Shown piece after piece: positions 10,050 to 18,072 of a stretch of 20,000 nt of DNA. This DNA is from an uncultured virus (IMG/VR IMGVR_UViG_3300047094_000158) (taxonomy: Duplodnaviria > Heunggongvirae > Uroviricota > Caudoviricetes). The position numbers and the translations under genes were made by a program. The stretch lies in the IMG/VR virus record IMGVR_UViG_3300047094_000158. The stretch is one strand, 5' to 3'. The notes under the pieces are model-generated. The model ran no database searches, was not told the origin of the DNA, and saw nothing but the letters and a program-made list of their open reading frames with translations. Within the stretch, counting starts at the first letter, position 1; the number at the start of each line of letters is the position of its first letter.

Positions 10050-10112
10050 TTATCCACAGGGGTTATCCACAGACACTTTTATACTGGTGAGTATACTGCT
10101 GAGTTATCCACA
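10050..10112 (+). promoter_or_regulatory. Three perfect DnaA boxes
   Basis: TTATCCACA at 10050, 10063, 10104. Confidence 0.8.
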
Positions 10113-10243: not shown

Positions 10244-10417
10244 ATGAATTCACTAAAAGAAAAAGTGTGTAAGCATACACCTAATAAAAATGCTATCTCT
10301 ATCGTTCATGATGAGCGATTTACTTTCTGCGAGGATTGTGAGCAGAATATAACTTCTCACCTTCGTGAGGATAATGACTTCATGTCATACTGGACTTCAT
10401 GGAAGGTTGGTAAGTAA
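10244..10417 (+). CDS. 57-aa Cys/His protein, paralog of 11244-11426
   Basis: AAGAAAGG RBS; VCKHTPNKNAISIVHDERFTFCEDCEQNI...WTSWKV. Confidence 0.75.
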   Translation: MNSLKEKVCKHTPNKNAISIVHDERFTFCEDCEQNITSHLREDNDFMSYWTSWKVGK

Positions 10418-10840: not shown

Positions 10841-10853
10841 AAAACCCGAGGAG

Positions 10854-10874
10854 TTATCCACAGGTTTATCCACA
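10854..10874 (+). promoter_or_regulatory. Two perfect DnaA boxes
   Basis: TTATCCACA at 10854 and 10866. Confidence 0.8.
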
Positions 10875-11000
10875 TGATACGTATCACATTTACCCCCCTC
10901 TATAAAAGCCCTGCTCAGAGCCTTAATTGGCATACCTATAGAAATGTGGCGTACATCACAAATCAAAATGTCCGTTTTGCCCTACTTACTGGCTAGTAGA

Positions 11001-11243: not shown

Positions 11244-11426
11244 ATGATAACACTAGAAAAAACAATAGTATGCAAAGAGCATACACCAAATAAATCTGCT
11301 ATCTCTATGGTAGGAGATGACCAATTCACATTCTGCGAAAGTTGTGAACAAAATATTGAGCGTTGGTATAACGATACTGACCCAGAGCGTCTGCCTATGT
11401 GGACAGATTGGAAAGTGTCTAACTAA
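11244..11426 (+). CDS. Cys/His protein, paralog of 10244-10417
   Basis: VCKEHTPNKSAISMVGDDQFTFCESCEQNI...WTDWKV. Confidence 0.75.
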   Translation: MITLEKTIVCKEHTPNKSAISMVGDDQFTFCESCEQNIERWYNDTDPERLPMWTDWKVSN

Positions 11427-11700: not shown

Positions 11701-11851
11701 TTATTCAGATCACTGCATAAAAAACCCGACTCCCCTGGCGTGTCGTCCACAGCCTGTGGATAACTTACGAGATGTGTTTAAGATCACAGAAATTTTGTGG
11801 GGCATATCACACCTCTGAGCGTCTCATTATTTGGAATTACTGGCTAGTAAG

Positions 11852-12883: not shown

Positions 12884-13030
12884 ATGTTAACTGATTTAGA
12901 TTTAATTGCAATAATAATTGCGCTAACTGGTTGCTTAACTGTTATGTTTTTATTTTGGAAACAAAATATTGCACAACAAAAAGAAATTCGTAGATTGCGT
13001 AATGAATTGCGTAAACTTCTTAAAGTATAA
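12884..13030 (+). CDS. 48-aa membrane/coiled-coil peptide
   Basis: N-terminal TM (LIAIIIALTGCLTVMFLFW) and basic helix. Confidence 0.6.
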   Translation: MLTDLDLIAIIIALTGCLTVMFLFWKQNIAQQKEIRRLRNELRKLLKV

Positions 13031-13036
13031 AATGAA

Positions 13037-13062
13037 ATCCTGGACATGATATAAAACTGTCC
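13037..13062 (+). ncRNA. 3'-UTR H-type pseudoknot, copy 1
   Basis: ATC-CT-GGACA-T-GAT-ATAAAAC-TGTCC. Confidence 0.6.
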
Positions 13063-13161
13063 GAACGTTTGTTCTAAAAATCCCCGAGGCGTTTTCCACA
13101 GGTTTGTCCACAGGCCTTTACGTGTGATTAAAAACACACCCCAGATTCCCCAGATCTTTAC

Positions 13162-13200
13162 GGCGTGTCGTTTGAAAACGTCAGTCCAGTCTGCTAGGAT
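13162..13200 (+). promoter_or_regulatory. Promoter with GACAC box and PafBC-like element
   Basis: GGCGTGTC-gt-TTGAAA-a-CGTCAG-N10-TAGGAT. Confidence 0.7.
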
Positions 13201-13223
13201 AAAGATATAACGAAAGGAAAACT

Positions 13224-13346
13224 ATGAAAGATTACTTTGATGAATTCTATGATGACTACTATTCTAACGTTGAGCGTGTTAGCGTGTCTGATTGCTATTG
13301 TAAAACTATGATGCTATGCTCGTATTGTGCGAAGGGATATAACTAA
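13224..13346 (+). CDS. 40-aa Cys-rich peptide
   Basis: GAAAGGA RBS; DCYC...LCSYC. Confidence 0.6.
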   Translation: MKDYFDEFYDDYYSNVERVSVSDCYCKTMMLCSYCAKGYN

Positions 13347-13531
13347 TGGGTAAAGTTAAAAATGCACTAATGGATATTCTTGCTCATAGCGATTGCTATG
13401 GCGCAGGTTGGCAATTCGTAGGAAATGCTATAGACTATGATGTATGGGCGTGTGAGTGTAATCCTTACAATATCCCTGCTGATGAAATACAGGACTACCA
13501 CCAATTATTTAAAACTAAGGAGAACGCATAA
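13346..13531 (+). CDS. Zinc-binding protein, paralog of 12518-12667
   Basis: HSDCYGAG...GNAIDYDVWACEC...LFKTKENA. Confidence 0.7.
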   Translation: MGKVKNALMDILAHSDCYGAGWQFVGNAIDYDVWACECNPYNIPADEIQDYHQLFKTKENA

Positions 13532-13740
13532 TGGAATATAATTATTCACTTACTACTTCGTATGACGGAGAGTTAGTTCATACCCTGCGAGTTAGCGACA
13601 TGCTAGAGGCAGTAAACGCTTGGACTAAATGTGTAGACTTTGGCGATGCTAAAGAATACGCAACCTATAATTTATCTGACCCAACAGGTAAAATGTATAC
13701 AAAGACCTTCTACACTAACGGAAATGTGGTAATTAAATAA
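13531..13740 (+). CDS. Hypothetical protein
   Basis: AAGGAG RBS, TAATG coupling. Confidence 0.7.
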   Translation: MEYNYSLTTSYDGELVHTLRVSDMLEAVNAWTKCVDFGDAKEYATYNLSDPTGKMYTKTFYTNGNVVIK

Positions 13741-14027
13741 TGGGATCAATAACAGCACTAGGAATTAAAGATGAAGTCTTAGACTTAGAAACTCAATTAC
13801 TTTATCACTTAAAGGGTAATCACTATCCACCAGTACCAGCAGAGATGGTTAAGCCTTGTATTGAAGCGATTGACGCATTCTATGATGAGGACTATCAACG
13901 CATGATTGAGATGCCTATGGTTGGCGACTTTCAAATTTTATATCGTGGAATGACACACGCACCTGCTAGCGCAATAGTAAGCCAGCACCACCTAGAGTGG
14001 TTTATTGACCCAGTAAATGAGGACTAA
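13740..14027 (+). CDS. Hypothetical protein
   Basis: HLKGNHYPPVP...SQHHLEWF His-rich motif; TAATG coupling. Confidence 0.7.
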   Translation: MGSITALGIKDEVLDLETQLLYHLKGNHYPPVPAEMVKPCIEAIDAFYDEDYQRMIEMPMVGDFQILYRGMTHAPASAIVSQHHLEWFIDPVNED

Positions 14028-14028
14028 G

Positions 14029-14268
14029 ATGATTGATCTAGAAAATGATGATACCATTCAGATTGTGGACTATGTAAAAGTTGATATATTAACTTCAGGT
14101 CAATTAGAGATTGAAGATTGTATTCTAATTGGCGATGAAGTTGTGTCTATTGTAGATATAGTATCACTACCTGATGGATATACTTTAGAAATTGTAAATG
14201 ATTTTGGTGAAAGAGAAATAATTGAAGTTGGCGAATACGACCAATTTGATTTAATGATGTTACAGTAA
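14029..14268 (+). CDS. Acidic hypothetical protein
   Basis: GAGG RBS before ATG 14029. Confidence 0.65.
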   Translation: MIDLENDDTIQIVDYVKVDILTSGQLEIEDCILIGDEVVSIVDIVSLPDGYTLEIVNDFGEREIIEVGEYDQFDLMMLQ

Positions 14269-14315
14269 AGGCCGCCCGAGTAGCGATTTGTCCGATTTGT
14301 ATCAATTAAGAAGGC

Positions 14316-14344
14316 TTGATATTTTCTCCAAATTATGCTAAAAT
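14316..14344 (+). promoter_or_regulatory. Sigma70 promoter, leaderless
   Basis: TTGATA-N17-TAAAAT with TG extension; ATG 6 nt downstream. Confidence 0.7.
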
Positions 14345-14350
14345 TTTTAT

Positions 14351-15079
14351 ATGAACACACCACAGTTAAAAAGATCACATGATAGAAAGGTGACTAACCT
14401 TGTCACAAAAAATGGAAAACAGTCCGCTATTGCCAATACTTTTGGATTACCTGCTGGAAAAGAATTCTCATGTCCTGGGGCTACTAGTGTCTGCGAAAGT
14501 GTCTGCTACGCAGGAAAACTTGAAAAGTTATTCAAAGGAGTAAAAACTAATCTCCTGCACAATTGGGAGTTATTGAAAAACGCTGATCATGAAACTATGA
14601 CGGCATTGCTATATGTAATGATTGCTGATTTTAAAAAAGATTGTGATAAGAAGAATGCACAAAAACTATTCCGTATCCACTGGGACGGAGATTTCTTTAA
14701 TGACACTTACACAAAAGCATGGAAAGAAGTTATAGAGTATCATAGTGACGTAAAGTTTTGGGTATACACTAGAGTACATTCTGCAGCGGTAATGCTCAAG
14801 GACATCCCTAATCTATCTTTATACTATTCAACAGATAGCGAGAATAAAGATATTGGTGTTAGTTTAAAGAAAGATCACGGAGTGCGTCTTGCATACCTTG
14901 CAAAGAATTTTGCTATTGGTCAAGCAGACATGAAAGAGTTATTCAACCGTCCTGGCGCTAAGTGTCCTGAGAATCTAAAGTCTATCCCCCTTATCTCAAA
15001 TAGTGGAAGTGCTTGCGTATCATGCGGATTGTGTGTATACTCAAAGAGCGACATCGTATTCTCGTCATCTAAAAAATAG
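14351..15079 (+). CDS. GP88-like protein (mycobacteriophage L5 gp88 family; Cys-rich, possibly Fe-S/radical-SAM-related)
   Basis: FGLPAG..SCPGATSVCESVCYAGK, FRIHWDGDF, FWVYTR, CP...CVSCGLC. Confidence 0.75.
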   Translation: MNTPQLKRSHDRKVTNLVTKNGKQSAIANTFGLPAGKEFSCPGATSVCESVCYAGKLEKLFKGVKTNLLHNWELLKNADHETMTALLYVMIADFKKDCDKKNAQKLFRIHWDGDFFNDTYTKAWKEVIEYHSDVKFWVYTRVHSAAVMLKDIPNLSLYYSTDSENKDIGVSLKKDHGVRLAYLAKNFAIGQADMKELFNRPGAKCPENLKSIPLISNSGSACVSCGLCVYSKSDIVFSSSKK

Positions 15080-15088
15080 GAGTATCGC

Positions 15089-15154
15089 TTGGAAATGTTA
15101 ATAATACTATCAATCATATTCTGCTGCCTATTGTTCGCAGGTATGGGTCATTAA
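15089..15154 (+). CDS. Short hydrophobic peptide
   Basis: AGGAG RBS then TTG/ATG; LIILSIIFCCLLFAG. Confidence 0.35.
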   Translation: MEMLIILSIIFCCLLFAGMGH

Positions 15155-15201
15155 GTGTGGTCTAAATCACATCTCAAAATATGAGATTATTGTGATATAA
15201 C

Positions 15202-15230
15202 TTGTATTTTTGGGATAAAAATGTTAGACT
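15202..15230 (+). promoter_or_regulatory. Sigma70 promoter
   Basis: TTGTAT-N17-TAGACT; Crp-like box at 15156-15171 upstream. Confidence 0.65.
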
Positions 15231-15265
15231 TGTATAGTAAGCAAAAACCAACAAAAAGGAGAACC

Positions 15266-15433
15266 ATGTCCGTATCAAACGCAACTTACAAAGTAGGGGA
15301 TACCTACACAAGCCAAAAGTCCAAAGCCACAGGCGTTATCAAAGAAATCGTGCCACAGGCAAATGGTAATGTTCGTGTTAAGTTAGATGTTGCTGGCGCA
15401 ACTCGCTGGACAACTTGGACAGCAAAGTCATAA
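15266..15433 (+). CDS. Small SH3-like protein, paralog of 16057-16227
   Basis: AAGGAG RBS; TYKVGDTYTSQKSKATGVI. Confidence 0.75.
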   Translation: MSVSNATYKVGDTYTSQKSKATGVIKEIVPQANGNVRVKLDVAGATRWTTWTAKS

Positions 15434-15436
15434 CAC

Positions 15437-15481
15437 TTTAGCAAACGCTAAAAGTCCTGAGCATGACTACTAAAACTGCTC
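15437..15481 (+). ncRNA. Hairpin plus H-type pseudoknot, copy 2
   Basis: TTTAGC-AAAC-GCTAAA then AGTC-CT-GAGCA-T-GACT-ACTAAAAC-TGCTC. Confidence 0.7.
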
Positions 15482-15488
15482 ACCACAA

Positions 15489-15510
15489 TGTCAGACCAAC
15501 CCCCTATACT
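15489..15510 (+). promoter_or_regulatory. PafBC/RecA-NDp-type promoter
   Basis: TGTCAG-N10-TATACT, no TTG -35. Confidence 0.7.
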
Positions 15511-15542
15511 AGAAATATAACCCACTAAAGAAAAGGAACACC

Positions 15543-15965
15543 ATGTCAAGAGGAAAAGCAATCTCAGTAAAAATCCCTACTGCTAGAGTAATCAAAGCAC
15601 TAGAAACTAAACTAGCACAACTAGAAAAAGACTATGCTACACAAGGTGAAAACGAAGCAAAGTATCAAAAGGCTTACAAGGCTTGGCAAAAAGAACTTGC
15701 TGAGTTCGCAGTAGGTAAAATTGCTAAGGCTGAGAACATCAGAACCAATTATCGTTCTTGGAACTCAACACTAAATGTTGATTTTGATTTAATTCTCAAA
15801 GATGGAGAATTTCCTAAAGAGCCTGAAAAGGATTTTGAGGTTATCCACTCTCATACTTACAATGAGCAGAAAGAGGAAATGTCTAACGCTATTCGTATCC
15901 TCAAGATGACAGATGAGGAAGTAGTTAATACTTCTACATACAACGCAGTTGCTCGTTATCTCTAA
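15543..15965 (+). CDS. Helical hypothetical protein
   Basis: AAAGGA RBS; 140 aa ORF with strong codon bias. Confidence 0.8.
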   Translation: MSRGKAISVKIPTARVIKALETKLAQLEKDYATQGENEAKYQKAYKAWQKELAEFAVGKIAKAENIRTNYRSWNSTLNVDFDLILKDGEFPKEPEKDFEVIHSHTYNEQKEEMSNAIRILKMTDEEVVNTSTYNAVARYL

Positions 15966-15989
15966 TTAGATAGAGATGGGGGAGGGTAT

Positions 15990-16018
15990 TTGACTCCCCC
16001 GTCAAAATCTAGTAAAAT
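15990..16018 (+). promoter_or_regulatory. Sigma70 promoter overlapping a GC hairpin
   Basis: TTGACT-N17-TAAAAT; GGGGGAG...CTCCCCC inverted repeat at 15978-16000. Confidence 0.6.
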
Positions 16019-16056
16019 TAAATAATACAAACCACCATAAACAGAAAAGGAAAATC

Positions 16057-16227
16057 ATGACACTAGGCGGATACACATATCAACTAGGTGATCTATTCAC
16101 CACAAGCAAAACTGGCGTTACAGGTAGAATTGTAAAATTCTCACCTATCAACTCTAAACTAACTAGAGTATCGCTACAGTTAGCAAACGGCTCTCGTCGT
16201 TTAGCAATGGTATCAACAACTAAATAA
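16057..16227 (+). CDS. 56-aa SH3-like protein, paralog of 15266-15433
   Basis: AAAGGA RBS; TYQLGDLFTTSKTGVTGRI...RVSLQLANGSRR. Confidence 0.75.
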   Translation: MTLGGYTYQLGDLFTTSKTGVTGRIVKFSPINSKLTRVSLQLANGSRRLAMVSTTK

Positions 16228-16282
16228 ATAAACAGGGGGGGTAGACAACCTGCCCCCCTCTAACTAAGAAAGTAGGCCCCTT

Positions 16283-16693
16283 ATGGAGCAAACAACAATA
16301 CATGCAACTGAAGATTATCTTAGATCTCAGATTGCAGAAAAAAATGAACGCATTCTAACACTGGAGCAACACATCCAAAGAGTAACACAACGTGACTACA
16401 CAGGCGCTGCTAACCTAACAGCAATGCGTGATCAAATGCATACGTGGACCACGACTGAATTAGAAAATCAAGATATCACAAAAGAGCAGGCAGAAGCAAT
16501 TGCTGAAATCTGTGGATTTGAATTAACTAATGAAGTTGAGGTCATGGTAACCGTAGAATATTCAATGACCATTAATGTACCTGCAGGTGAAGATGTAGAA
16601 GATATCATTCATGATATTGATTTTGACGCAATCTCATATGACACTGACAAGATAACTTATGTTTCTAGTTCTCTTAGTGGAGTGGAGTTTTAG
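16283..16693 (+). CDS. Hypothetical protein (coiled-coil N-terminus, acidic C-terminus)
   Basis: 136 aa ORF, GAAAGTAGG RBS. Confidence 0.75.
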   Translation: MEQTTIHATEDYLRSQIAEKNERILTLEQHIQRVTQRDYTGAANLTAMRDQMHTWTTTELENQDITKEQAEAIAEICGFELTNEVEVMVTVEYSMTINVPAGEDVEDIIHDIDFDAISYDTDKITYVSSSLSGVEF

Positions 16694-16735
16694 TAGGGGG
16701 CTACTAAAGGACCTGGGCACGTCTTTAAACTGCCT
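16689..16735 (+). ncRNA. Hairpin plus H-type pseudoknot, copy 3
   Basis: TTTAGTAG-GGGG-CTACTAAA then GGAC-CT-GGGCA-C-GTCT-TTAAAC-TGCCT. Confidence 0.65.
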
Positions 16736-16824
16736 CACAAATCCCCAGCAAAAATCCTCGGGGAATATCCCAAATGTCCGATTTATACCATTTAAGAAGA
16801 TTAAACTATTTTCCCCAGTCCTGA

Positions 16825-16853
16825 TTGACATTGTCAGCCATGAGTGCTAAAAT
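16825..16853 (+). promoter_or_regulatory. Consensus promoter with PafBC-like element
   Basis: TTGACA-t-TGTCAG-N10-TAAAAT. Confidence 0.75.
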
Positions 16854-16879
16854 TAATTAAAACAACCGAAAGGATAAAA

Positions 16880-17902
16880 ATGGCTCATGATTTAGAATCA
16901 CAAAATGGTGTAGCAAGTTTTGCATCATTCCGTGAACCTGCTTGGCATGGTTTAGGTACTGTGTTTACAGATGAAAAAACAACTAGCGAAATGCTAGAGA
17001 CTGCTAACCTTAATAATTGGAATGTTCGTTTAGAGGAATTAGAAATTCCATCTGCGCTAACATCTGATAAGAATTACCAATATGTAGTGCGTACAAACCC
17101 TACTGATAAATCTCAAACTGATGTTTTGGGAATTGTTGGTGAGCGTTATGTGCCATTGCAAAATGAGGAACTATTCTCATTTGGTGATAACATTCTTGAT
17201 GGCGGTGGACGTTGGGAGACTGCTGGCTCAATTCGTGGTGGTCGTGTAGTATTTGGCTCACTAGCATTAGAGCGTGAAACAATTCTTGACCCTAATGGTG
17301 TTGCAGATAAGGTAAAGACTTATTTGCTTATTAACACATCACACGATGGCTCAATCGCTATTCAAGCAAGCATAACACCTGTTCGTGTTGTGTGTGCTAA
17401 TACTCTTAACCTTGCTCTTGGTGGCGTAGGTCGCAAAAAGAATAAGGGTATCAAGCAATCTTTCAAGATTCGCCACACGCAAACTGCCAATGGTAAGGTG
17501 CAAGTTGCTCGTGAGACTTTAGGTCTTGCTAATGCGTACATGGATGAATTTGATATCATGGCTAAGGCAATGATTGAAAAGACTGTTGATGCTAAAATGT
17601 TTAACGACATTATTCTTGCTGCTTATCCTAAGCCAGAAAAAGATGCTAAGGGTGCTGTTAAAAAATGGGAAAATAAAGTTGATACCATTAATGACATCTA
17701 CACTGGCGAATTTAATGGCATGATTGCTGGTAGTGCGTGGGGTGCGTTCAATGCATTAACTGAGCGTCTTGATTGGTACCGTTCTGCTCGTGGTGGTAAT
17801 AACGAAAGTTTATTAGCATCAGCAAGTGGTTTTGATCCATCAATCAATGCAGAAAAAAATCGTCTGCTAAAAGTTGTACAAAATGTTATGCAACTAGCAT
17901 AA
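16880..17902 (+). CDS. DUF932-family phage/plasmid-like protein
   Basis: MAH...REPAWHGLG, YVPLQN, WETAGSIRGG, YLLINTSHDGS, TPVRVVCANT, IRHT, SAWGAFNALTE; GAAAGGA RBS before ATG 16880. Confidence 0.9.
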   Translation: MAHDLESQNGVASFASFREPAWHGLGTVFTDEKTTSEMLETANLNNWNVRLEELEIPSALTSDKNYQYVVRTNPTDKSQTDVLGIVGERYVPLQNEELFSFGDNILDGGGRWETAGSIRGGRVVFGSLALERETILDPNGVADKVKTYLLINTSHDGSIAIQASITPVRVVCANTLNLALGGVGRKKNKGIKQSFKIRHTQTANGKVQVARETLGLANAYMDEFDIMAKAMIEKTVDAKMFNDIILAAYPKPEKDAKGAVKKWENKVDTINDIYTGEFNGMIAGSAWGAFNALTERLDWYRSARGGNNESLLASASGFDPSINAEKNRLLKVVQNVMQLA

Positions 17903-17934
17903 CAAAAAATCCTGAGCATGATTTTAAACTGCTC
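17884..17934 (+). ncRNA. Hairpin plus H-type pseudoknot, copy 4
   Basis: TGTTATGC-AACTA-GCATAACA then AAAATC-CT-GAGCA-T-GATTTT-AAAC-TGCTC. Confidence 0.7.
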
Positions 17935-17942
17935 ACCTTCAA

Positions 17943-18016
17943 GGTCTGGTAGATCAATTGGTTAGATCGTTACCCTGTCACGGTAAAGGTTGCGGGTTCA
18001 AGTCCCGTCCAGATCG
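17943..18016 (+). tRNA. tRNA-Asp (GTC)
   Basis: Acceptor GGTCTGG/CCAGATC, D stem GATC/GATC, anticodon arm TTACC-CTGTCAC-GGTAA, T arm GCGGG-TTCAAGT-CCCGT, discriminator G; CCA not encoded. Confidence 0.95.
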
Positions 18017-18072
18017 CAAGCGGGGTCGGGTTTTATAACAAAAATGTTATTTATTTTTTCTATTAAGAATAC

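Follow-up and report, generated by a model that had tools for sequence, protein, structure and literature searches.

The whole stretch of phage DNA analyzed here, which we call the window, is 20,000 nucleotides long and carries four copies of a small RNA pseudoknot (the knot) between genes. The features concerned are the following.

12884..13030, + strand: 48-aa ORF, 5' of copy 1
13037..13062, + strand: knot copy 1, with a 3-bp stem 1, a CU linker, a 5-bp stem 2 and an AAAC loop
13172..13200, + strand: predicted promoter about 110 nt 3' of copy 1 (consensus match only)
15266..15433, + strand: 55-aa ORF (g55), 5' of copy 2
15437..15452, + strand: predicted local hairpin separating the g55 stop from copy 2
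15453..15481, + strand: knot copy 2, a variant with an 8-nt spacer and a 4-bp stem 1
15489..15510, + strand: predicted phage early promoter directly 3' of copy 2 (consensus match only)
15543..15965, + strand: 140-aa ORF (g140)
15975..16018, + strand: GC-rich hairpin overlapping a predicted promoter
16283..16693, + strand: 136-aa ORF, 5' of copy 3
16689..16708, + strand: predicted local hairpin with a GGGG loop, spanning the stop codon
16709..16735, + strand: knot copy 3, whose stem 1 has 4-6 bp counting G-U
16825..16853, + strand: predicted sigma-70-type promoter 3' of copy 3, before the DUF932 gene (consensus match only)
16880..17902, + strand: DUF932 gene (PF06067)
17906..17934, + strand: knot copy 4, with a 6-bp stem 1
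17943..18017, + strand: tRNA-Asp(GTC)

All four pseudoknots proposed by the sequence-only reading were found where it had placed them, on the + strand and with the stems it had described. A structure-only scan of the 74,826-base contig gave exactly these four matches and none on the - strand, and 100 dinucleotide shuffles of the window gave a mean of 0.12 chance matches with a maximum of 1. The stop codons preceding copies 1 to 4 are those of the 48-aa ORF, g55, the 136-aa ORF and the DUF932 gene, respectively. The description of the elements as standing immediately after stop codons was right for copies 1 and 4, where 9 nt lie between the end of the stop and the CT linker, but not for copies 2 (23 nt) and 3 (19 nt). 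The 8-nt gap between copy 4 and tRNA-Asp was also correct, as were the absence of a U-tract from all four copies and the folding of three hairpins 5' of the knots, two of which contain the stop codon. Three copies have a predicted promoter on their 3' side, and the fourth has the tRNA. A knot was present behind all six distinct homologues of the 48-aa ORF that were checked. The DUF932 gene has counterparts of about 54% identity in Samisti12 and other Streptomyces phages. This similarity is the one pointer to an actinobacterial host, as a WhiB gene was not found in the contig, which is 68% complete. The Pfam match of g140 to Anthrax-tox_M (E 0.003) was below the cut-off and was treated as noise. 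Four RNA runs, consisting of contigs without RNA-end information, share 5-7% of words with the region.

The knot family was estimated to occur in about 3,900 viral stretches. Its carriers are many phages and some bacterial genomes, the hosts span many phyla, and the copies are intergenic and on the sense strand. The H-type pseudoknot structure received strong support, since phage contigs whose flanks are dissimilar showed covariation well above that of shuffles. That is, pairs 2 and 3 of stem 1 were formed in every one of 127 non-redundant copies, where shuffles reached at most 78 and 74, and the outer pairs of stem 2 in 106, 114 and 115 of 117 copies (shuffle maxima 98, 95 and 96). Watson-Crick pairing of stem 2 was also supported by covariation with the stem positions left free, and the CT linker appeared in 98/107 copies when the linker was left free in the scan. 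Stem 1 is typically 3-4 bp and stem 2 is 5 bp. Among 186 copies from related phages, the loop-closing pair was C-G in 182 and the 6-nt spacer register was kept in 157; the first loop base was C and the penultimate one A, two letters that the scan itself had fixed. The loop starts C-U-(A/G); it ends in C in copy 3, as it does in 15 of the 186. The AAAC motif, which had been called invariant, is not fully so: 162 copies read AAAC-U and 22 read AAAA-G. The region 3' of the knot is unstructured and G-poor. The hairpin upstream of some copies does not belong to the element, being present in 120/344 viral copies against about 100 expected. The 15437 hairpin changes in sequence with its pairing kept in some relatives, and the 16689 hairpin is kept in relatives at the same junction. 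A match in Erwinia phage Berlingot, in which stem 1 is broken, was left out of the counts.

The covariance models of Rfam 15, including the STAXI, preQ1, SAM-II and GP20 motifs, gave no match to the knot in the window up to an E value of 10. There was likewise no knot match for 12 coremin-type loci and 13 leader loci, and 17 related loci matched tRNAs only. We found no description of the motif in phages or bacteria in the open-access literature; catalogues in supplements (e.g., bioRxiv 10.64898/2026.09.22.753630) or in subscription journals could list it. A real copy was absent from Syn9, crAss001, SPO1, AR9, P-SSM2, phiKZ, K, Patience and Samisti12, and six pattern matches in three of these nine cultured phages, for which transcript maps are likely to exist, were judged from the matched letters to be due to chance. 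As far as the available part of PMC2864571 describes it, the STAXI motif (RF01728) resembles the knot in being a small repeated pseudoknot near DNA-handling and antirestriction-type genes, but its units stand in tandem and have UUCG loops, it is listed for Enterobacteriales, and no Rfam match to it was obtained here.

The closest known relative of the knot is coremin, an Xrn1-blocking motif of plant viruses that forms the xrRNA-C class of beny-, cucumo-, umbra- and hypoviruses (PMC6546385, PMC10520033). In the available parts of these papers, coremin is defined by stalling a 5'-to-3' exoribonuclease without protein cofactors, it also blocks scanning ribosomes (PMC10520033), and its fold is called unsolved in papers of 2023. 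The knot shares most of the nucleotides reported there as essential in the tests of PMC6546385, and two defining coremin features fail. Both motifs are located behind stop codons or between genes, and both have a short C-G-closed hairpin, a first loop C and a penultimate loop A; most knot copies also keep the 6-nt spacer register of coremin, followed by AAAC-U. The coremin first hairpin is 3-5 bp with a pyrimidine-purine closure, and stem 1 of the knot is within this range with C-G closure in nearly all copies. Against the coremin spacer A-A-A-C-U-A-C, the knot agrees in part, through AAAC-U and in the register in the proportions given above; the next letter is mostly G, and 5/361 copies contain the coremin 3' half exactly. 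The two motifs differ in the loop, for which the coremin consensus seen in these sources is Y-G-(N)n-A-D; the knot loop has 8 nt and U, not G, as its second base. Moving the loop G abolished resistance in coremin hexaloops (PMC10520033), and loops of 6-8 nt were also resistant in the coremin work. A second hairpin directly behind the spacer was found in 62/344 copies versus 108 expected from random windows, a test that a 2-bp hairpin, sufficient in vitro, would escape. Furthermore, coremin stem 2 is described as a non-canonical contact, in contrast to the 5-bp Watson-Crick stem 2 of the knot, and the knot occurs in DNA phages and bacterial genomes. A second comparison is offered by xrRNA-WCC (PMC10321173), the Watson-Crick variant of coremin, which in the available text is, like the knot, a canonical H-type pseudoknot on a coremin scaffold, in which stem 2 covaries and A-minor contacts are predicted. 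It has a 4-nt loop, an obligatory one-nt G linker, a 3-bp stem 2 and a second hairpin required for Xrn1 stalling; the knot shares the Watson-Crick stem 2 and lacks the G linker, the 3-bp length and the second hairpin.

True coremin was present in gut-phage contigs, just 3' of a terminator in 9 of 12 non-redundant cases and standing before the head-scaffold gene. The same pre-scaffold site is taken by an 8-nt-loop knot in Lactobacillus phage AQ113 and in another locus, L237.

Eighty related loci were fetched via g140, so that knot presence was not a selection criterion, and promoters at the junction were scored by a phage-specific consensus. In the 53 relatives with the g55-g140 junction, the knot interchanges with hairpin-plus-promoter cassettes; the promoter motif was present in 17/20 junctions without a knot versus 9/33 with one (Fisher p 6e-5), and the promoter seen 3' of copy 2 is missing in most knot-bearing relatives. 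At the 15975..16018 hairpin site, many relatives have a knot instead. These swaps indicate that the knot is transcribed through, and transcription often continues from it into a next gene lacking its own promoter. The replacing cassettes resemble the PeSL cassettes of T4-type phages (PMC2839356), which lie between small ORFans and consist of a GC-rich stem-loop that overlaps an early promoter; in the available part of that paper the PeSL stem-loops are terminators, whereas the knot is a pseudoknot that is usually read through and needs no promoter. The knot was rejected as an intrinsic terminator, since at least 5 U follow it directly in only 22/344 viral copies and the genes behind it are often promoter-less. 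A terminator lies just 5' of the knot in 12/344 copies and just 3' in 1/344 (28 versus 15 in a looser window).

Taken comprehensively, these data lead us to propose, with somewhat less than even confidence, that the knot is a read-through roadblock to motors moving 5' to 3', which preserves the RNA downstream. Of the functions offered by the sequence-only reading, exonuclease block seems the best. The compact 3'-UTR module it described has to be modified, because the knot is not simply 3'-UTR, being often transcribed into the promoter-less next gene, and its closest relative blocks from the 5' side. The RNA 3' of the knot would survive as a separate message. The fold is probably coremin-like: the first loop C would occupy the major groove of stem 2, the adenosines would contact stem 1 in its minor groove, and the longer Watson-Crick stem 2 may substitute for the second hairpin of coremin. 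The motor blocked would be RNase J in hosts that have it, and elsewhere perhaps scanning ribosomes or Rho. RNase J1 is known to be blocked by a flaviviral xrRNA (PMC5760640).

The main rival, which we regard as unlikely, is a non-terminating 3' cap. It would protect the message 5' of it from 3'-to-5' exonucleases once the RNA has been cut further 3', for instance by RNase P at a tRNA, while transcription continues. Knots crowd stop codons, and 16 of the 19 copies with a downstream tRNA lie only 3-14 nt before it. At the pre-tRNA site, 42 of 49 loci have a knot, 6 a plain GC hairpin without a promoter, and 1 neither; the same swap separates Labelle from Patience. Such replacement by plain GC hairpins at an equal distance from the stop fits a cap better than a roadblock. 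A cap requires no particular host nuclease, and it also fits the promoter anticorrelation, since a terminating hairpin needs a new promoter and a read-through cap does not. In contrast, it leaves unexplained the near identity to the essential letters of coremin, the knots 3' of intrinsic terminators, and the knots that a leader ORF overlaps with a constant spacing to a cysteine codon (see below). The unstructured, G-poor tail behind the knot would, moreover, be a good loading site for 3' exonucleases. Gene orientation cannot tell a 5' from a 3' role, because 101/111 copies are flanked on both sides by co-directional features.

The stop-to-linker distance has its mode at 9 nt (51/284) and is below 8 nt in 7/284 copies; that is, there is a sharp floor at 8-9 nt and a long tail up to 80 nt, and the knot stands about one ribosome footprint 3' of stop codons. 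In the roadblock model, this spacing would prevent the terminating ribosome from melting the knot. It could instead mean that the ribosome itself is the target, with the knot bracing at the mRNA entry channel and either pausing it or blocking post-termination sliding and re-initiation as a specialized ribosome termination structure (RTS), which we consider rather improbable. Stem 1 typically starts 5-6 nt past the stop, where the available part of PMC7518266 assumes the entry tunnel to end. The RTS described there is likewise a stable fold that begins just outside this tunnel when a ribosome has reached the stop codon; it is defined by generic folding energy, whereas the knot is a sequence-specific pseudoknot family. 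The ribosome is common to all hosts, and coremin is described, in the sources available, as stalling scanning ribosomes and promoting frameshifting. Against such an action stand the tail to 80 nt and the copies after terminators or far from stops, which need some other role. Nor was a conserved frame found beyond the stop (65/109 frames stop within 15 codons and 18 reach at least 30), which speaks against a read-through or frameshift pseudoknot.

Bacterial copies lie at a fixed 11 nt from the last cysteine codon of a two-cysteine mini-peptide (13/13 loci found by the knot and 18/19 found by the peptide), a spacing that again favors a role of the ribosome. The leader ORF overlaps some of these knots. 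The peptide has no family match in Pfam or NCBIfam, and its knots often precede Rrf2, redox or metal genes. We suppose that a ribosome passing the last cysteine would melt the knot, which would make a switch. In 21 of 79 mini-peptide loci the knot is followed by a terminator, and 8 of these 21 face a convergent gene, so no downstream gene is served there.

Cis-acting antitermination RNAs such as HK022 put and the Bacillus EAR element suggest a further alternative, that the knot is an antiterminator or a protein-binding site causing RNA polymerase to read through. It would explain how promoter-less genes are reached, and in some leader loci a terminator lies 10-50 nt 3' of the knot, as in an attenuator. 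We think it improbable, given that hosts come from many phyla, that phage knots so rarely have a terminator behind them, and that a convergent gene faces several of the terminator-followed loci. Least probable of all, and in our view very unlikely, is that the knot works as a minimal self-cleaving ribozyme or binds a small molecule as an aptamer: the compact pseudoknot with invariant unpaired letters is of a size similar to preQ1-I, but Rfam gave no match, and the related coremin has been assayed as an Xrn1 block with no self-cleavage reported in the available text. The suggestion of a ligand-binding aptamer or riboswitch gains no support from the phage copies, as their flanking genes are functionally unrelated and their length and position are set by a ribosome footprint.

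Returning to the roadblock, we counted in its favor the stem covariation, the coremin register match, the floor in the stop-to-linker distance, the placement of exact coremin and of the AQ113 and L237 knots before the scaffold gene, the promoter anticorrelation, the predominance of terminators on the 5' side and an excess of RNase J, which was found in 32/50 genomes with a real knot versus 20/50 with a chance match (p 0.027). Counted against it were the missing second hairpin, the loop U in place of G, and the 18/50 carrier genomes in which RNase J was not found, many of them incomplete or possibly containing mis-binned phage contigs. Phages of Vibrio, Pasteurella and the crAss group also have complete knots, and their hosts are not known to carry RNase J. 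The pre-tRNA swap, the loci without a served downstream gene, and the promoter or tRNA behind each window copy also speak against it.

More tentatively still, we propose that the knot and plant-virus coremin may be one structural family and the first exoribonuclease-resistant RNAs of bacteria and phages. In phages they would lie beyond terminating ribosomes and give promoter-free, protected 5' ends; in anaerobes the overlap with the two-cysteine leader would let ribosome position switch the block under metal or redox stress.

The available parts of the xrRNA papers cited describe directional RNA roadblocks from eukaryotic RNA viruses only. If the proposal is true, the knot, at about 27 nt and present in thousands of phage contigs as well as in the leaders of bacterial operons, would extend xrRNAs across domains, and phages would possess a post-transcriptional substitute for promoters. 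The leaders would represent a new type of leader-peptide control with a pseudoknot as its output, and the knot would provide a very small, portable RNA-stabilizing part for bacteria. With its canonical 5-bp stem 2 and deep covariation, the knot is also a natural object on which the coremin fold could be solved, probably with less difficulty.

The whole contig was scanned for the architecture stem1-CT-stem2-N-stem1'-AAAC-stem2', in which CT is the linker between the two stems of an H-type pseudoknot of about 27 nt (the knot). Exactly four matches were found, all on the plus strand, and these are the four elements that the sequence-only reading had pointed out; in 100 shuffles of the window the mean number of matches was 0.12 and the maximum was 1. 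The window forms the final 20 kb of a linear 74.8-kb phage contig (estimated completeness 68%), and from about 10 kb onward it carries small co-directional genes with recurring promoter-like motifs.

13037-13062, plus strand: knot copy 1, stop-to-linker distance 9 nt
15453-15481, plus strand: knot copy 2, 23 nt
16709-16735, plus strand: knot copy 3, 19 nt
17906-17934, plus strand: knot copy 4, 9 nt
Run from about 10 kb: GP88-family gene
Run from about 10 kb: DUF932 gene
Run from about 10 kb: tRNA-Asp

A position immediately after stop codons, claimed for all four copies, therefore holds for copies 1 and 4 but not for copies 2 and 3. The DUF932 product shares about 54% identity with Streptomyces phage genes such as those of Samisti12, from which we infer that the host is probably actinobacterial. 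Clusters of 9-mers, which we take to be DnaA-box-like, lie in intergenic cassettes at 10050-10100, 10850-10875, 11745-11765 and 13090-13115, one of them just 3' of knot copy 1. A paralogous pair of small Cys-containing ORFs (10272-10350 and 11278-11356) shows 78% identity across 79 nt.

A pattern scan of IMG/VR returned 131 loci, and extrapolation from 2 of 64 parts gave an estimate of about 3,900 stretches. Stem 1 had at least 3 bp in all 136 distinct matches, though the pattern fixed only the closing pair. After copies with similar flanks were merged, pairs 2 and 3 of stem 1 were kept in 127/127, with all four Watson-Crick types present (shuffle maxima, 78 and 74), and pair 4 in 106/127; pair 5, paired in 44/127, was not above chance. 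In stem 2, the outer pairs, where the scan left the positions unconstrained, were kept in 106/117, 114/117 and 115/117 (shuffle maxima, 98, 95 and 96); these column shuffles leave relatedness in, yet the copies were drawn from many contigs whose flanks are dissimilar, and covariation is seen within one genome too. With the inner two positions unconstrained, both pairs were kept in 116/123 (CA/TG 80, TA/TG 31, TA/TA 5). Both covarying stems of the sequence-only reading are thus borne out, and the predicted pseudoknot fold is shown by covariation. The linker and the AAAC loop end, described as invariant, are mostly kept, with exceptions (CT 98/107 and AAAC 96/107 when the loops were unconstrained).

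The knot was also present in 73 of 80 loci retrieved by the protein of g140 (a 140-aa ORF, 15543..15965) alone, in which the knot was not used for selection; these held 186 distinct sense copies vs 2 antisense. Among cultured phages, those of Vibrio, Pasteurella, Mycobacterium, Bacillus, Lactobacillus, Synechococcus and Roseobacter include carriers of complete knots, as does a crAss-like phage record. Among 121 GTDB matches, 56 had at least three Watson-Crick pairs in stem 1, and the 52 with the fixed pair only served as chance controls. The knot structure is real and widespread. It had no Rfam match up to E 10, as checked for a known class, and the family was absent from Rfam and from the open-access literature searched.

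The main comparison is coremin (xrRNA-C), the Xrn1-blocking motif of plant viruses. Its register is shared by the 3' half of the knot, and the knot retains the letters that are essential by mutagenesis (PMC6546385), namely a closing pair of pyrimidine and purine, C as the first loop base, three adenosines, C and U. The knot resembles coremin, but because its second loop base is U, not the G of coremin, and the second hairpin is depleted (62/344 vs 108 expected), it should not be classed as coremin. Coremin remains resistant with longer loops, and coremin blocks scanning ribosomes (PMC10520033); a Watson-Crick variant is known (PMC10321173), and bacterial RNase J1 is halted by a flaviviral xrRNA (PMC5760640). 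Phage contigs, among them that of an Erwinia phage, also carry coremin-like variants with 6-nt loops (L691, L751:2691-2716 and L688; L-numbers are fetched loci), which suggests that loop sizes in DNA phages form a series from 4 to 8. Tandem knots, spaced a few to about 50 bases apart, were seen in L181:640-696, L185, L796 and L081; tandem coremin pairs are also reported for some plant viruses.

By this analogy, the most likely function of the knot, which we propose tentatively, would be a coremin-like 5'-to-3' roadblock. RNase J was mildly enriched, in 32/50 knot-carrier genomes vs 20/50 controls (p 0.027; 50 of 54 carrier and 50 of 52 control loci entered, many genomes being incomplete). RNase J is not required; the Vibrio, Pasteurella and crAss hosts are not known to have it.

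A less likely explanation, but a live rival, is that the knot is a read-through 3' cap for the upstream message. At the junction between g55 (a 55-aa ORF, 15266..15433) and g140, 53 distinct relatives had the knot with a promoter motif in 9, the knot only in 24, the promoter only in 17 and neither in 3 (12, 22, 18 and 1 by eye), an anticorrelation with Fisher p 6e-5; at the next junction (g140-g56, n=12), 10 had the knot only and 2 the promoter only. This pattern means that the knot is read through and replaces the hairpin and promoter of other lineages, cassettes that look like the PeSL of PMC2839356. The read-through placement is shown, but the direction of the block is left undecided by these swaps, because a read-through cap predicts the same pattern. 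At the DUF932-tRNA junction (n=49), 42 had the knot, 6 a plain GC hairpin without a promoter and 1 neither, and in phages Patience and Madruga a long hairpin takes the place that the knot has in Labelle; these hairpin swaps count against a 5'-to-3' roadblock and fit a cap better.

Exact coremin inside phages bears on the cap from the other side. Its pattern scan gave an estimate of about 490 stretches and 122 loci, 80 of which form a single group of gut-phage contigs (12 after collapsing). A terminator hairpin with a U-tract precedes coremin in 9 of the 12, and an element 3' of a terminator cannot cap an already terminated upstream message. All six downstream proteins tested were head scaffolds, a short second hairpin is possible at these sites, and the same pre-scaffold site is taken by an 8-nt-loop knot in phage AQ113 and L237. 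The exact plant-virus coremin lies between terminator and head-scaffold gene in L632, L633, L635, L636, L640-L642, L670 and L703, with two to four short repeats 3' of it.

At the g55-g140 junction, a separate conserved, structured element that spans about 60 nt and has several apparent helices stands in place of the knot, followed by a small hairpin and promoter (L909:3870-3940, L951, L933, L975, L922, L939, L973, L980, L961); it had no Rfam match in the 4 loci scanned. The same junction holds another feature:

L910, L911, L924, L953: candidate second, larger H-type pseudoknot (5-bp stems, A-rich loop), in tandem 5' of the knot

A crude ORF caller placed 111 of 132 long-flanked, non-redundant viral copies outside ORFs; 106 of these 111 had a same-strand feature upstream and 105 had one downstream. 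Among 344 viral copies, 284 had a stop codon in range upstream, and the stop-to-linker distance was most often 9 nt (51 copies); 4 copies were at 8 nt and only 7 were closer. The 7-12 nt range took in 109 copies, vs 9 in the reverse-strand control. Stem 1 typically begins 5-6 nt 3' of the stop, where PMC7518266 assumes that the entry tunnel of the ribosome has its edge. A ribosome-footprint spacing of the knot behind stops is shown. Downstream start codons concentrate 17-30 nt from the knot, and 16/19 downstream tRNAs lie at 3-14 nt. A U-tract after the knot was usually absent, no conserved read-through frame past the stop was found, and an upstream hairpin, proposed as part of the module, was not enriched (120/344 vs about 100 expected).

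An ORF of 20-29 residues with terminal A-H-C-x-x-G-C overlaps the knot in 13 GTDB loci; its last Cys codon lies exactly 11 nt 5' of the linker in 13/13, while the stop position varies. When selection was by the peptide only, which matched 133/301 genomes of one phylum, 19 of the 30 fetched loci were judged by eye to be such mini-ORFs, and 18 of these had stem 1 together with an 11-nt distance to the linker. A metagenome scan with the 11-nt spacing and loop letters fixed and both stems unconstrained gave stem 1 in 115/117 loci and all five stem 2 pairs in 86/117. These results show that the knot is coupled to the leader peptide. Rrf2 regulators made up 27/78 downstream ORFs; redoxin, YHS, MerE, HMA, Metal_resist and DUF326 domains were among the others. 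A terminator lies directly 3' of the knot in 21/79 leader loci, 8 of them facing a convergent nucleotidyltransferase-like gene, so that no downstream gene is served by the knot there. Before Rrf2-ferredoxin-hcp genes, a palindrome, a candidate Rrf2 operator, overlaps the promoter predicted for the two-cysteine leader ORF (L182, L186, L140, L137, L234).

A role in which the knot acts on the ribosome is less probable than the cap but is also a live rival. Neither this role nor the 3' cap need exclude the roadblock.

A natural variant, AAAC-U to AAAA-G, was observed in 22/186 copies (related loci L906-L985), in which A-G takes the place of the A-U pair innermost in stem 2. This variant could serve as a natural test of the predicted tertiary contact.
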